Assembly: GCA_964016885.1 (NCBI GenBank)
Contig: OZ024742.1
Span: 287,246,001-287,310,000 of the forward strand
Reading direction: 5' to 3'
DNA length: 64,000 nucleotides
From: Eledone cirrhosa
Lineage: Eukaryota
The notes under the pieces are model-generated. The model was not told the origin of the DNA. It made no database searches and saw only the letters and a list, made by a program, of their open reading frames with translations. Shown piece after piece: positions 15,845 to 63,371 of the stretch (positions are counted from its first letter, which is position 1; each line of letters starts with the position of its first letter). The position numbers and the translations under genes are program-made.

Positions 15845-17240
15845 GGGTAGCACACATATCTAGGACCACATACAACACAAGCAGGTAATACACACATCTA
15901 GGACTACATGCAGAACATAATCAGGTAATACATACATCTAGGACCACATACAACACATAATCAGGTAATACAAACATCTAGGACCACATACAACACATAA
16001 TCAGGTAATACATACATCTAGGACCACATACAACACATAATCAGGTAATACATACATCTAGGACCACATACAACACATAATCAGGTAATACATACATCTA
16101 GGACCACATGCAATAAATAAGCAGGTAATACACACATCTAGGACTACATGCAGAACATAATCAGGTAATACAAACATCTAGGACCACATACAACACATAA
16201 TCAGGTAATACAAACATCTAGGACCACATACAACACATAATCAGGTAATACATACATCTAGGACCACATACAACACATAATCAGGTAATACAAACATCTA
16301 GGACCACATACAACACATAATCAGGTAATACATACATCTAGGACCACATACAACACATAATCAGGTAATACATACATCTAGGACCACATACAACACATAA
16401 TCAGGTAATACAAACATCTAGGACCACATACAACACATAATCAGGTAATACATACATCTAGGACCACATACAACACATAATCAGGTAATACATACATCTA
16501 GGACCACATACAACACATAATCAGGTAATACATACATCTAGGACCACATGCAATAAATAAGCAGGTAATACACACATCTAGGACTACATGCAGAACATAA
16601 TCAGGTAATACAAACATCTAGGACCACATACAACACATAATCAGGTAATACAAACATCTAGGACCACATACAACACATAATCAGGTAATACATACATCTA
16701 GGACCACATACAACACATAATCAGGTAATACAAACATCTAGGACCACATACAACACATAATCAGGTAATACATACATCTAGGACCACATACAACACATAA
16801 TCAGGTAATACATACATCTAGGACCACATACAACACATAATCAGGTAATACAAACATCTAGGACCACATACAACACATAATCAGGTAATACATACATCTA
16901 GGACCACATACAACACATAATCAGGTAATACATACATCTAGGACCACATACAACACATAATCAGGTAATACATACATCTAGGACCACATGCAATAAATAA
17001 GCAGGTAATACACACATCTAGGACTACATGCAGAACATAATCAGGTAATACAAACATCTAGGACCACATACAACACATAATCAGGTAATACAAACATCTA
17101 AGACCACATACAACACATAATCAGGTAATACATACATCTAGGACCACATGCAATAAATAAGCAGGTAATACATTCATCTAGGACTACCTACAACACACAG
17201 GCAGGTAATACATACATCTAGGACCAAATACAACACACAT
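15845..17240. repeat. 40-bp minisatellite (about 35 units) inside the hAT element
   Basis: Unit CATACATCTAGGACCACATACAACACATAATCAGGTAATA; variant units recur every 440 bp. Confidence 0.97.
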
Positions 17241-19776: not shown

Positions 19777-22146
19777 TATAATATATAATATAATATAATA
19801 TAATATAATATAATATAATATAATATAATATAATATAATATAATATAATATAATATAATATAATATAATATAATATAATATAATATAATATAATATAATA
19901 TAATATAATATAATATAATATAATATAATATAATATAATATAATATAATATAATATAATATAATATAATATAATATAATATAATATAATATAATATAATA
20001 TAATATAATATAATATAATATAATATAATATAATATAATATAATATAATATAATATAATATAATATAATATAATATAATATAATATAATATAATATAATA
20101 TAATATAATATAATATAATATAATATAATATAATATAATATAATATAATATAATATAATATAATATAATATAATATAATATAATATAATATAATATAATA
20201 TAATATAATATAATATAATATAATATAATATAATATAATATAATATAATATAATATAATATAATATAATATAATATAATATAATATAATATAATATAATA
20301 TAATATAATATAATATAATATAATATAATATAATATAATATAATATAATATAATATAATATAATATAATATAATATAATATAATATAATATAATATAATA
20401 TAATATAATATAATATAATATAATATAATATAATATAATATAATATAATATAATATAATATAATATAATATAATATAATATAATATAATATAATATAATA
20501 TAATATAATATAATATAATATAATATAATATAATATAATATAATATAATATAATATAATATAATATAATATAATATAATATAATATAATATAATATAATA
20601 TAATATAATATAATATAATATAATATAATATAATATAATATAATATAATATAATATAATATAATATAATATAATATAATATAATATAATATAATATAATA
20701 TAATATAATATAATATAATATAATATAATATAATATAATATAATATAATATAATATAATATAATATAATATAATATAATATAATATAATATAATATAATA
20801 TAATATAATATAATATAATATAATATAATATAATATAATATAATATAATATAATATAATATAATATAATATAATATAATATAATATAATATAATATAATA
20901 TAATATAATATAATATAATATAATATAATATAATATAATATAATATAATATAATATAATATAATATAATATAATATAATATAATATAATATAATATAATA
21001 TAATATAATATAATATAATATAATATAATATAATATAATATAATATAATATAATATAATATAATATAATATAATATAATATAATATAATATAATATAATA
21101 TAATATAATATAATATAATATAATATAATATAATATAATATAATATAATATAATATAATATAATATAATATAATATAATATAATATAATATAATATAATA
21201 TAATATAATATAATATAATATAATATAATATAATATAATATAATATAATATAATATAATATAATATAATATAATATAATATAATATAATATAATATAATA
21301 TAATATAATATAATATAATATAATATAATATAATATAATATAATATAATATAATATAATATAATATAATATAATATAATATAATATAATATAATATAATA
21401 TAATATAATATAATATAATATAATATAATATAATATAATATAATATAATATAATATAATATAATATAATATAATATAATATAATATAATATAATATAATA
21501 TAATATAATATAATATAATATAATATAATATAATATAATATAATATAATATAATATAATATAATATAATATAATATAATATAATATAATATAATATAATA
21601 TAATATAATATAATATAATATAATATAATATAATATAATATAATATAATATAATATAATATAATATAATATAATATAATATAATATAATATAATATAATA
21701 TAATATAATATAATATAATATAATATAATATAATATAATATAATATAATATAATATAATATAATATAATATAATATAATATAATATAATATAATATAATA
21801 TAATATAATATAATATAATATAATATAATATAATATAATATAATATAATATAATATAATATAATATAATATAATATAATATAATATAATATAATATAATA
21901 TAATATAATATAATATAATATAATATAATATAATATAATATAATATAATATAATATAATATAATATAATATAATATAATATAATATAATATAATATAATA
22001 TAATATAATATAATATAATATAATATAATATAATATATTATATTATATTATATTATATTATATTATATTATATAATATAATATAATATAATATAATATAA
22101 TATAATATAATATAATATAATATAATATAATATAATATAATATAAT
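19777..22146. repeat. About 2.35-kb near-perfect (TAATA)n pentanucleotide array with a short internal inverted (TATTA)n block at about 22037-22072
   Basis: Direct inspection. Confidence 0.97.
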
Positions 22147-22234
22147 GAGTTTATAATATTATAATATTATATTATAACATTAAATCATAAAAATTGTTTA
22201 GAACTACAAGTGAAGTCATTCTTTTCCTTTTTTT

Positions 22235-22265
<31 letters not shown>

Positions 22266-22359
22266 TACCGTTTGAGAATGCATAAGGAAAAGACAAAAAA
22301 ATTGTATATATATATATAATATATATATAATATATATATATATATAATATATATATAAT

Positions 22360-22592
<233 letters not shown>

Positions 22593-23239
22593 TATATATA
22601 TATAATATATAATATATATATATTATATATTATATATTATATATATATACAATTTTTTTGTCTTTTCCTTATGCATTCTCAAACGGTAATAGTATTAGAC
22701 CCCGGGATTAACAACATGTAAATTTTATTTACATTTGGATTAAAACCATATAACATTTTATCTAAAATAATCCTTCTATTGTCAACTATAATAAATAGAC
22801 ATGGTATATATGAGTTTGTAAGCGTCTGTGTATGAGTATGTGTCGGTGAGTGTGTGTTTGCGCGTTCGTTACATACGTAAGGCCTTAGTAATTTACATGC
22901 ACACACATCTTCACGTAAATATTTAATCAGATACACAGATAATTAAATGCACACACACACACACACACACATCTACACATGATGACTGACAATTATATGT
23001 GTGTGAGTGTATGTGAGAGTGTATGTGTGTGTGAGTATATATACATTTCCGTAACGAAATGACGTAATGAAACGCTGGGGGTGAAACTGTGTGTGTTTGT
23101 ATGAATGTATGTCTGTGTGTGTTTTTTTATAAGTGTATGTTTCTGCATACACACACACACACATAGATATTTTGAAATAATTATGAGAAAAAATATATCA
23201 TCATATTTATTGTTTACAAATCTGAATAAGAATAGCAGA

Positions 23240-59801: not shown

Positions 59802-61111
59802 TAAAAACAAATAACGAAACGAAATTAAATTTCGTTTCGTTTGTAACTCACTTTTGTATGACTGACGCTTAAACAATTAAGTTAAAAATGTACATCTACA
59901 TATGCATACTGAAATACTAGTGTGTATATGAATACACACACGTATACATATGCAGATGTAACAAGTCTTTCACTGGTTGCTTTACTGTGAGCAACCCAGC
60001 TATTCTGTATGTAAACACACAGACAAACCGGTTTTTAGAGTCATACTGGTTTTCGAGGAAACACCTTCCCTCTATTCTCCAGAAAGCCAGACAAGGAATA
60101 TTGAACTAGTTTCGTTGTTGTTACAACTCATCAGCAATATTTACCTATCTACCGGCCTTTCTGGAGAATTGTAAAAGCACATATCGTTATATGCTTTTTC
60201 TATGAAAATTAGTAGTGGGCAGACTAATTTGCATAGAGTGTGAGTACGCACCGGTTCAGCGGAGACGATAAAAACAAATAACGAAACGAAATTAAATTTC
60301 GTTTCGTTTGTAACTCACTTTTGTATGACTGACGCTTAAACAATTAAGTTAAAAATGTACATCTACATATGCATACTGAAATACTAGTGTGTATATGAAT
60401 ACACACACGTATACATATGCAGATGTAACAAGTCTTTCACTGGTTGCTTTACTGTGAGCAACCCAGCTATTCTGTATGTAAACACACAGACAAACCGGTT
60501 TTTAGAGTCATACTGGTTTTCGAGGAAACACCTTCCCTCTATTCTCCAGAAAGCCAGACAAGGAATATTGAACTAGTTTCGTTGTTGTTACAACTCATCA
60601 GCAATTTCAGTATGCATATGTAGATGTACATTTTTAACTTAATTGTTTAAGCGTCAGTCATACAAAAGTGAGTTACAAACGAAACGAAATTTAATTTCGT
60701 TTCGTTATTTGTTTTTATCGTCTCCGCTGAACCGGTGCGTACTCACACTCTATGCAAATTAGTCTGCCCACTACTAATTTTCATAGAAAAAGCATATAAC
60801 GATATGTGCTTTTACAATTCTCCAGAAAGGCCGGTAGATAGGTAAATATTGCTGATGAGTTGTAACAACAACGAAACTAGTTCAATATTCCTTGTCTGGC
60901 TTTCTGGAAAATAGAGGGAAGGTGTTTCCTCGAAAACCAGTATGACTCTAAAAACCGGTTTGTCTGTGTGTTTACATACAGAATAGCTGGGTTGCTCACA
61001 GTAAAGCAACCAGTGAAAGACTTGTTACATCTGCATATGTATACGTGTGTGTATTCATATACACACTAGTATTTCAGTATGCATATGTAGATGTACATTT
61101 TTAACTTAATT
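59801..61111. mobile_element. Retrozyme-like multimer of a 467-bp HHR unit: 1.7 units (-) joined head-to-head to 1.09 units (+), inserted in (TA)n
   Basis: 59801 and 60268 start identical sequence (period 467); 60604-61111 is a circularly permuted reverse complement with 41-nt terminal redundancy. Confidence 0.9.
60845..60889 (+). ncRNA. Minimal type I hammerhead ribozyme (mirror copies at 60097-60141 and 60564-60605 on minus strand)
   Basis: AATATTG-CTGATGA-GTTGT-aaca-ACAAC-GAAA-CTAG-TT-CAATATT; predicted cleavage after 60882. Confidence 0.92.
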
Positions 61112-61122
61112 ATATATATATA

Positions 61123-61283
<161 letters not shown>

Positions 61284-61430
61284 GGGTGTGTATGATTTTG
61301 TATAGAAGATTATATTAATAAGAGGAATTCCAACTTTGTCTGATTTACTCGTTTTATTTACAATCCTTTAAAATTTATAATGGTATTATAATGAAATAGT
61401 ATGATAGAATATTAAATTCTAAGTGTTAAT

Positions 61431-61469
61431 TGAACAAGTACTTTCATGCTTTCGCAATCTTCAGGTTCA
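61431..61469 (-). ncRNA. Minimal type I hammerhead ribozyme of the Penelope-like element
   Basis: TGAAC-CTGAAGA-tTGC-gaaa-GCAt-GAAA-GTAC-TT-GTTCA. Confidence 0.88.
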
Positions 61470-61529
61470 TAATATGTGGTGACAGTCAAGTTTGCAATTT
61501 TCAACTGTAATAAGATGGGTAAATTTCCT

Positions 61530-61680
61530 ACCTTTTATACATTTTATACAGGGAAAAGTGGCTCCAGAATGCTAAGCCCTGCAAACTGTATTTCGACCAA
61601 TCAGTGTGTAGTTTCACTGAATTACTAAAGCTGATTGGTTTAAGCGTCACGGCTGGTTGGGCATGTCTAGCGACCAATAA
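61530..61680 (-). promoter_or_regulatory. Putative Pol II promoter in the PLE terminal repeat
   Basis: Three CCAAT boxes (near 61597, 61634, 61674) followed by two TATAAAA (minus strand, about 61533-61548), 65-80 nt upstream of the HHR. Confidence 0.5.
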
Positions 61681-61783
61681 TTAATCATATCCAAAGCATC
61701 AATTGTTTTGCTATTTTTAGAAATGATGAAAATAGCATTTTCTATTAATCATCACCATCAACATCACTTTTATTATTATTATT

Positions 61784-61819
<36 letters not shown>

Positions 61820-61866
61820 AGTGGTCGTAGTCATAGTGGTAGTAGAAGTAATACCCCTAAGCGTTA

Positions 61867-63334
61867 TTATTGTTCATTTAGCTTGGGTTTGAATTTATCA
61901 ATAAAATTCTTTTCTTTGATTTTTCTCTTGATTTCACTTGGGCTGTGTAATTTGTAGAATGGGAATATTATAAATATTCCCTGTTGCTAGATGGTTACTT
62001 AGGGGTATCTGACGGACATTTGGGTCTCTGATTTGTTGACTGTGTATCCGTGCACGTTCCGATAGTGCATTTCCAGTTTGACCGACATATAGTTCTTCAC
62101 AATTCGGGCATTTAATGCAGTAAATTAGATTTCTGCTTTTGCAGTTCATATTTGCATTTGGGAATATTTTTCCAGTTTTTGTTTTCATATATTGACCGGC
62201 GTGTATGGATTGACATGTGCCGCATCGACTATCATTGCATTTAGATACAGTGAATGATTGGTCTTTGTTGTTAAGGTCAAACTTTGCTTTTGTTAGTAAT
62301 TGCTTCACATTTTTTGGCTGTCTTTTACTAAGAGTCAAAGATCGATCTGTGTTTAAGCCTTTTAATTCATTACTTTGAGCAATGATCGGTAGGTTTGCTT
62401 TGGCAGTGTTGAAGATATTCTGGTGACATGGGTTGTGTGTCATTATAAATGGTATGACCAGTTCTTGGTTTCTTCTTCCTTGGGTTGTCCTAAGTTGTTG
62501 TATAGGTATTTTTATAGCCCGCTGTATGCCATTTTCTATAAGCAGAGATGGGTATTTTTGTTTGAGCAAATATTCTCTTAGTTCTGTTAGGCGTTTGTAC
62601 CTGGTAATCGTATCTTCTACAATGGTACAAATTCTTCTGGCTAGGCAGTATGGGATGTTGCGTTTTGTATGAGGTGGATGGCACGACTTAAAATTCAGAT
62701 ATTGATGGGTGTCTGTGTGTTTATAATATATATCCGTGGTAATGGTGGTGTCGTTTTTGATTATCATTATATCTAGGAATGGTAATTTGGTCCTACTCAT
62801 CTCTTTTGTGAATTGGAGAGATGGGTGTAGGTTATTCAGGAGGATATTGAACTCGTCCAGAGTATCTAGAGATTCTGCCCAGATGATGAAACAGTCGTCA
62901 AGGTATCTCTTCCAAGATTTTTCAATGTACTTTCTAAAGTCAGTACTATATTTTTCCTCTATTTCTTGGTAGAGTTTTTGTTCTAAGTATTCCATTACAG
63001 AGTTCACGTAAACGGGAGCAAACTTCGTTCCCATCGCTGTGCCTCTAATTTGGATATAATTCTTTCCATTGAAGAAGAAAGTGTTATTTTCCAGAATAAG
63101 TTTAACTGCGTCTAATATAAATGGCGCTGTGAATCTGATGGGAATCACTTCTCTATGTTTTTCCACCCAGTATCTAACCGCCTTTATTCCTAAATCATGT
63201 GTAATGTTGGTGTAAAGGCTTACCACATCAAAACTGAGTAGAAGTGAATTCGTTTCCGTGGTTTTGGGAAGATGGGACAGGAAGTCGATATCATCCCGGA
63301 TGAAACTGGGTATGTGAATACATAGTGGTTTCAA
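61867..63334 (-). pseudogene. Penelope-like reverse transcriptase + GIY-YIG endonuclease (N-truncated, one frameshift near 61975)
   Basis: SFDVVSLYTNI, GTAMGT, KRYLDDCF, LPFLD; Cys linker CNDSRCGTC..C; LIYCIKCPNC..LYVGQT..L.ER..IH; after the frameshift FPFYK...EKNFIDKFKPKLNEQ* ends at 61867. Confidence 0.93.
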
Positions 63335-63371
63335 AATAATGTCAACATATATATATAATTATATATAATTA

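Follow-up and report, generated by a model that had tools for sequence, protein, structure and literature searches.

Non-LTR retrozymes of metazoans are built of tandem non-coding units that each contain one type I hammerhead ribozyme, and their predicted circles are AT-rich and highly self-paired, with the ribozyme left free; Penelope elements have been proposed as their helpers (PMC7229834; 10.64898/2026.07.22.740005). Penelope-like elements insert into (TA)n targets with an inverted arm and a 30–40 bp tail (10.1101/2021.04.23.441226), and in vitro a Penelope protein extends both strands and begins copying at two positions inside the RNA, which set the tail (PMC11167929). The Pelamoviroids PLMVd and CChMVd join a hammerhead rod to a multibranched domain with loop-mediated long-range pairing; they carry ribozymes in both polarities, which are blocked in the stable fold, and replicate from RNA to RNA with no DNA form (PMC11722881; PMC7761336). 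Newt satellite 2 has a dimer-dependent hammerhead in tandem units (via PMC7229834).

We analysed a 64-kb window, the whole stretch of DNA to which our coordinates refer, and describe an insertion made of a 467-nt unit (Table 1). This unit is a non-autonomous hammerhead retroelement, a non-LTR retrozyme, and forms a young non-coding repeat. It shares all of the metazoan retrozyme traits listed above, and its one-pair palindromic helix III resembles that of axolotl HHR_Amex1 (PMC7229834; 10.64898/2026.07.22.740005). At 467 nt it exceeds the 170–400 nt of the metazoan retrozymes in PMC7229834. Cleavage and circles were demonstrated for those elements, whereas the present one is known from sequence alone; conversely, the accessible text of the two reports gives minimum free energy (MFE) folds only, with no covariation, pseudoknot or two-site tail-out mark (PMC7229834; 10.64898/2026.07.22.740005). 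Like Penelope-like elements, the unit occurs in tandem copies, contains a hammerhead and sits in AT-rich or (TA)n targets, with one arm inverted and 5'-truncated and the 3' ends fixed at two sites. Unlike them, it has no ORF, its two end sites lie 69–74 nt apart, longer than the usual 30–40 nt Penelope tail, its hammerhead is canonical where that of Penelope is minimal, and it has no sequence beyond short words in common with the Penelope-like element next to it (PMC11167929; 10.1101/2021.04.23.441226). Our model, which we hold with considerable confidence as a whole, is of a non-LTR retrozyme whose conserved branched RNA is likely locked by a pseudoknot and likely copied by a Penelope enzyme from two sites. 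The DNA itself shows the unit and its copy number, arms that are paired and point outward, two fixed ends, and compensatory changes.

Table 1. Features of the insertion and its surroundings, in window coordinates; unit positions are numbered from the predicted cleavage site.
Feature	Position	Strand	Description
Whole insertion	59801–61111		Two opposed arms flanked by (TA)n tracts
Left arm	59801–60605	−	805 nt, 1.72 units; 3' end at unit position 303 (site 2) adjoins (TA)n
Right arm (element under study)	60604–61111	+	508 nt, 1.09 units of 467 nt; 3' end at unit position 229 (site 1) adjoins (TA)n
Type I hammerhead	60845–60889	+	Rfam Hammerhead_HH9, E 1.1e-7, 38.6 bits, under the 52-bit gathering score
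Second complete hammerhead	60097–60141	−	In left arm
Third hammerhead	ends at 60605		In left arm; cut off on 5' side
Stem I extension	60817–60912	+	60817–60843 pairs with 60891–60912; brings the two ends of the cleaved monomer together
P2 5' strand	60940–60947	+	GUAUGACU; partner 60656–60663; in family B, GUACGGCU/AGCYGUAC
P2 3' strand	60656–60663	+	AGUCAUAC
Site-1 hairpin	60638–60651	+	CUUAA-UUGU-UUAAG; arm ends in or beside loop, unit 229–235
P3 domain	60668–60746	+	GUGAGU 60668–60673 / ACUCAC 60741–60746; contains 13-bp hairpin 60678–60706 and site 2 at 60716–60718
Pseudoknot 5' strand (likely)	60954–60960	+	ACCGGUU, unit 72–78; alternative local partner AGCUGG
3-bp hairpin with 9-nt loop	60725–60739	+	Presents 3' strand AACCGGU, 60730–60736, unit 315–321
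Octamer	60752–60759	+	ATGCAAAT; ~130 nt ahead of cut; kept in family B
Penelope-like element, 5'-truncated	61283–63358	−	RT and GIY-YIG frame 61934–63358; minimal hammerhead 61424–61472

The two arms overlap by 2 nt at their inner junction and differ at one base only, G>A at 60909. The longest ATG frame in the repeated unit is 19–20 codons on either strand, so the unit does not code for a protein. Units are dispersed in tandem without LTRs, in arms that reach 31 units and end inside the unit. The octamer ATGCAAAT is possibly a DNA-level promoter element of the snRNA type. Newt satellite 2 has an snRNA-type promoter that contains an octamer; here, the octamer occurs in both the unit and family B (see below), and its promoter role is putative. 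Elsewhere in the window we observed two arrays of other repeats: a tandem one of 40 nt at 15858–17237 (34.5 copies, 93%), and an AT-only one of 10 nt at 19783–22647 (281 copies).

Motif searches of the 3.0-Gb host genome assembly returned 5,248 and 4,195 matches for two stem II variants, or about 9,400 ribozyme-bearing units. Monomers of this family, family A, group into subfamilies that are 89–95% alike. An older homologous outgroup, family B (~425 nt; 860 and 628 motif matches), has about 66% identity to family A across part of the unit. The first pair of stem II is mismatched in family B, whose loci (L082-L109, L160-L249) again end at the two sites, here about 51 nt from each other. Sequencing runs filed under 16 other organism codes (X5-X20) contain 15–44% of the unit's words, and the five that we examined were mostly shallow contigs. 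These words may come from related species, prey or environmental DNA, and we draw no conclusion about host range from these runs. Our literature search found no description of this family or of any retrozyme pseudoknot, although such families may be listed in supplementary material to PMC7229834 or the 2026 preprint.

Each unit carries a type I hammerhead with an intact core. The copy in the right arm consists of a 7-bp stem I, CUGAUGA, a 5-bp stem II with an AACA loop, GAAA and a palindromic ACUAGU helix III. Cleavage is predicted after 60882, at GUU; the cut site reads GUC in 18 of 56 distinct monomers, all from sister subfamilies. A GUU site is cut more slowly than GUC. Weak palindromic helices III of this kind act through ribozyme dimers (PMC4209133). 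Stems I and II both form in the MFE structure of the unit and the ribozyme is left free rather than sequestered. A search of the antisense strand of the unit for a hammerhead core found none, and Rfam at gathering thresholds gave no match in the 64-kb window. In three arrays (L250, L262 and L063), units with mutated ribozymes alternate with intact ones, mostly at every second unit, which could reflect uncut dimer templates or DNA-level duplication. Eight more motifs resembling the hammerhead core lie in the window (at 659, 13545, 19104, 26069, 29829, 48725, 48875 and 49169), those at 48725 and 48875 as an inverted pair; they are likely the ends of other Penelope families.

The original prediction was of a stable branched fold in the hammerhead-sense polarity, and folding bears this out. 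The predicted circular MFE of the unit is −161.4 kcal/mol with 68% of bases paired, far below 40 dinucleotide shuffles (−95.7 ± 4.7 kcal/mol; z −13.9). The antisense strand is also more stable than its shuffles, to a lesser degree (−131.2 kcal/mol; z −6.7). The sense fold contains 11 G-U pairs among 159, compared with 3 of 156 in the antisense fold. Once cleaved, the linear monomer (−165.7 kcal/mol) adopts a structure identical to that of the circle. The predicted fold is thus better than chance and biased to the ribozyme strand, yet a circle is not required for it. Closure across the cleavage site therefore proves no circle: the linear monomer folds alike, and a multimer with a type I hammerhead needs this stem anyway.

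The hairpin and long-range motifs listed in that prediction were all located as described, except that one letter had been taken from the other arm: TCTGGCTTTCTGGAGAAT is absent from 60604–61111, where the right arm reads ...GGAAAAT, and occurs only in the minus arm (60074 and 60541). Three long-range complements had been said to cross one another. Two of them, GTATGACT/AGTCATAC and GTGAGT/ACTCAC, do not, and correspond to mutually compatible helices, P2 and P3, both present in the MFE structure; only ACCGGTT/AACCGGT crosses them.

Comparison of natural copies supports selection on this RNA structure. Ten natural monomers of family A gave pairing in 96% of cells and seven pairs with changes on both sides, compared with 2.2 ± 1.1 in shuffles and 1–3 in slid controls; this count is not a probability, since the rows are related. 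When eight monomers of each family were aligned, 27 pairs had changed on both sides, compared with 8–11 in slid controls, a number that the shuffle control reaches in 19 of 500 runs. The covariation draws on about six related lineages and one distant family. Stem I changes from CAAUAU/AUAUUG to CAUCGU/ACGGUG between families, stem II is also double-changed (the two variants used in the motif searches differ by U-A/A-U), and the long-range P2 helix is replaced on both strands in family B (Table 1). Family B, at 66% identity, keeps the same helices using different letters. The earlier reading of G-U pairs as a sign of RNA-level selection fared less evenly: it agrees with their excess in the sense fold, but among single-side substitutions in the subfamilies 16 yield G-U and 10 A-C, which is not significant (p 0.33). 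Two old, decayed family-B copies showed no sense-over-antisense advantage by z-score. The least variable part of the unit is 223–336, where 11 of 114 positions vary, compared with 54 of 222 upstream. Overall, the compensatory changes support the prediction that the branched fold of the 467-nt RNA is conserved.

The ends of the insertions point to a Penelope-type origin. We mapped 73 non-overlapping family-A loci, a non-random set drawn from the best matches and the first listed motif matches, with duplicates removed. The 3' ends point outward in all 49 loci with two orientations. Outer ends fall at unit positions 226–236 or 298–305 in 115 of 119 cases and never at the cleavage site, and 43 of 44 classed arm pairs have one end of each kind. 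TA-rich DNA adjoins 106 of the 119 outer ends; target-site duplications are unreadable within (TA)n. Family B behaves alike, with 38 tail-out and 3 tail-in loci, 109 of 126 ends at the two sites and 28 of 30 pairs mixed. The same three positions carry loose (TA)n ends in run X1, which may be the assembly's own sample. An outward inverted, 5'-truncated arm, two fixed internal 3' ends and an AT-rich or microsatellite target are all features of Penelope-type insertion, and they make a Penelope-like reverse transcriptase, starting at two fixed internal sites, the likely agent that copies the unit into (TA)n.

A Penelope-like element that is not part of the unit ends in the same (TA)n tract as the right arm, and is a candidate for the type of helper involved. 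Its family is young, with many intact 775-codon frames, a 4,211-nt tandem period and 32,330 first-look candidates in the genome, and itself has inverted arms and a pair of 3' ends separated by 28 nt. The CX4CX2C motif that precedes GIY-YIG places it with the Neptune/Nematis type by published description, and its minimal hammerhead has a palindromic AGUACU helix III. In a comparison of the unit with this family alone, only short words were found in common (best E 0.013). One of these words, the 12-mer GTTTAAGCGTCA in the Penelope 3' region, is antisense (E 0.55), and we judged it a chance match.

The arms cross the cut in 107 of 116 cases, a figure inflated by the choice of loci, and 5' ends do not pile up at the cleavage site, with 5 of 116 within 10 nt where 5 were expected. 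An apparent excess of 5' ends at unit 8–37 in the first 30 loci was gone in the larger set. Because the arms cross the cut and their 5' ends show no pile-up there, the template spans the cleavage junction. We lean slightly towards a circle as this template, and give an uncut multimer a little under an even chance. In its fuller form, the latter alternative keeps the same element and Penelope enzyme but has the uncut linear multimer copied, with the fold serving enzyme binding or stability and circles rare or irrelevant; this is a serious possibility, though not the outcome we expect. It fits the identical folding of the linear monomer, the combination of a GUU cut site with a one-pair helix III, and the report that uncut RNA is the main substrate of a Penelope protein in vitro (PMC11167929). 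The even spread of 5' ends around the cleavage site argues against it, as does the finding that circles are the main form of the animal retrozymes tested (PMC7229834). Arrays give evidence on both sides. In nine of 21 multi-unit loci no variant is common to the units, and one of these arrays, with 20 units over both arms, has a single variable position, which speaks against a linear multimer; eight of the 21 are irregular period-2 or period-4 mosaics, which speak for it. The mosaics indicate that arrays also grow at the DNA level or derive from multimers, and they rule out long arrays as proof of rolling-circle copying. Assembly polishing could also homogenise arrays.

One locus (L254, G000:C2:95687000-95694000) records an RNA step. 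It holds a hypermutated unit in which 28 of 34 differences are A>G in the hammerhead sense, all within 30–363, and this unit recurs six times among unedited units, in both arms. It is likely the fossil of an ADAR-edited RNA template. The edited adenosines are not enriched at paired positions (12 of 28, compared with 61 of 99), so that editing more likely took place in a long duplex, such as read-through of the inverted arms. A matching T>C cluster is present in raw DNA reads of another study (one start). The A>G unit marks an RNA step in the ribozyme sense, not a circle; because it recurs at irregular steps, we rejected it as proof of a dimeric circle.

The suggestion of a pseudoknot or alternative folds holds in the form of a likely pseudoknot or switch, since family B keeps the crossing complementarity. 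A GC-rich long-range 7-mer complement appears in 38% of 300 shuffles, and the ACCGGUU pairing, the only one to cross P2 and P3, therefore counts only through its conservation. The family-B strands, UCGGGC/GCCCGG, form at least five of six pairs in 47 of 52 loci and all six in 7 of 12 full monomers, given a one-base shift in the preceding linker (one alignment column). In nine monomers, forcing both strands open costs 0.4–7.8 kcal/mol, compared with −8.3 to −9.8 kcal/mol for the duplex; with these strands open the folds of A and B resemble each other, and AGCUGG, once released, lengthens the hairpin that follows, as it does in family B. Modelling and conservation together suggest that the pseudoknot is probably present. 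The competing explanation, which we find possible but doubtful, is that the crossing complement is due to chance or belongs to a conformational switch, the working fold being the nested MFE, in which CCGGUU forms a local helix with AGCUGG. Both the MFE and the RNAalifold consensus favour this local helix, the shuffles readily yield such a 7-mer, the 5' strand is a palindrome, and family A shows no double change in the crossing pair, of which 5 bp remain in 86–89% subfamilies. Against it, family B changes both crossing strands and retains their complementarity, the pair that closes the 9-nt loop occurs as C-G, U-A or G-C across lineages, and 98.9% of cells pair in the competing GCUGG/CCAGU helix, which sets the strand free. 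The 3-bp presenting stem has a probability of 0.02 in the nested ensemble, and its two most frequent broken variants, which make up 14 of 90 cases, each lack one pair. A search for a third homologous family with four sequence patterns found none; one pattern gave mostly a family-B variant.

The description of the unit as viroid-like is apt for its shape only, with no antisense hammerhead, a free ribozyme and integrated DNA copies in the thousands. Endogenisation of a viroid-like replicon, an RNA-to-RNA circle captured in DNA, would explain its size, branched fold and hammerhead, and the possible loop interaction recalls that of Pelamoviroids (PMC11722881; PMC7761336). However, hammerheads in both polarities, a blocked ribozyme and the absence of a DNA form, all features of Avsunviroidae and Pelamoviroids, are missing here. 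The antisense strand lacks a hammerhead core and the ribozyme is not sequestered, and for these two reasons the unit is not a viroid; in addition, about 9,400 DNA units bear a retrotransposon insertion mark and all inferred templates have a single polarity. We regard capture of such a replicon as highly improbable. Hardly credible at all is a DNA satellite or foldback element with hairpins from DNA-level inverted duplication. In its favour are the near-perfect, AT-rich pairing of several stems, the stability of the antisense strand as well (z −6.7) and the DNA-level turnover of arrays. This origin is largely refuted by ribozyme covariation (an intact ribozyme with stems I and II double-changed) and by arm geometry (one-way orientation, fixed ends), and is further opposed by the restriction of G-U pairs to one strand and the single polarity of the A>G hypermutation.

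For a retrozyme copied by a Penelope enzyme, we envisage the following cycle. Tandem transcripts would cleave themselves when two ribozymes dimerise by way of the palindromic helix III. The long stem I would keep the two ends of each refolded monomer together, and ligation into circles would likely follow, as shown for coral, mussel and axolotl retrozymes. The enzyme would nick both strands of (TA)n, and one cDNA starting at site 1 and another at site 2 would give two divergent arms through the cleavage junction. Immediately within P2, a small hairpin holds site 1; a single-stranded stretch of P3 next to the pseudoknot loop holds site 2. Both sites fall within the most conserved, pseudoknot-tied part of the unit (223–336). 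By its position and conservation, the P2-pseudoknot-P3 core with both start sites would likely be recognised by the enzyme. A more speculative extension, which we think rather unlikely, makes the pseudoknot-locked P2-P3 core a dedicated landing pad in the RNA, fixing the two points at which a Penelope reverse transcriptase dimer would start on a covalently closed circle, so that both strands of the (TA)n break would be extended round the same circle.

In the literature we consulted, the folds of animal retrozymes are energy predictions only, and their mobilisation by Penelope is proposed from co-occurrence and phylogeny (PMC7229834; 10.64898/2026.07.22.740005). What is added here for a retrozyme is a covariation-backed fold with a testable pseudoknot beside two start sites: in one young family, next to a young Penelope family, a 467-nt RNA offers compensatory changes and a candidate pseudoknot together with two start sites placed to the nucleotide. 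An in vitro Penelope assay already exists (PMC11167929), which makes both the circle as template and the reading of the RNA structure directly testable. Should the landing pad prove real, retrotransposition of a circular RNA would have its first defined cis-acting tertiary structure.
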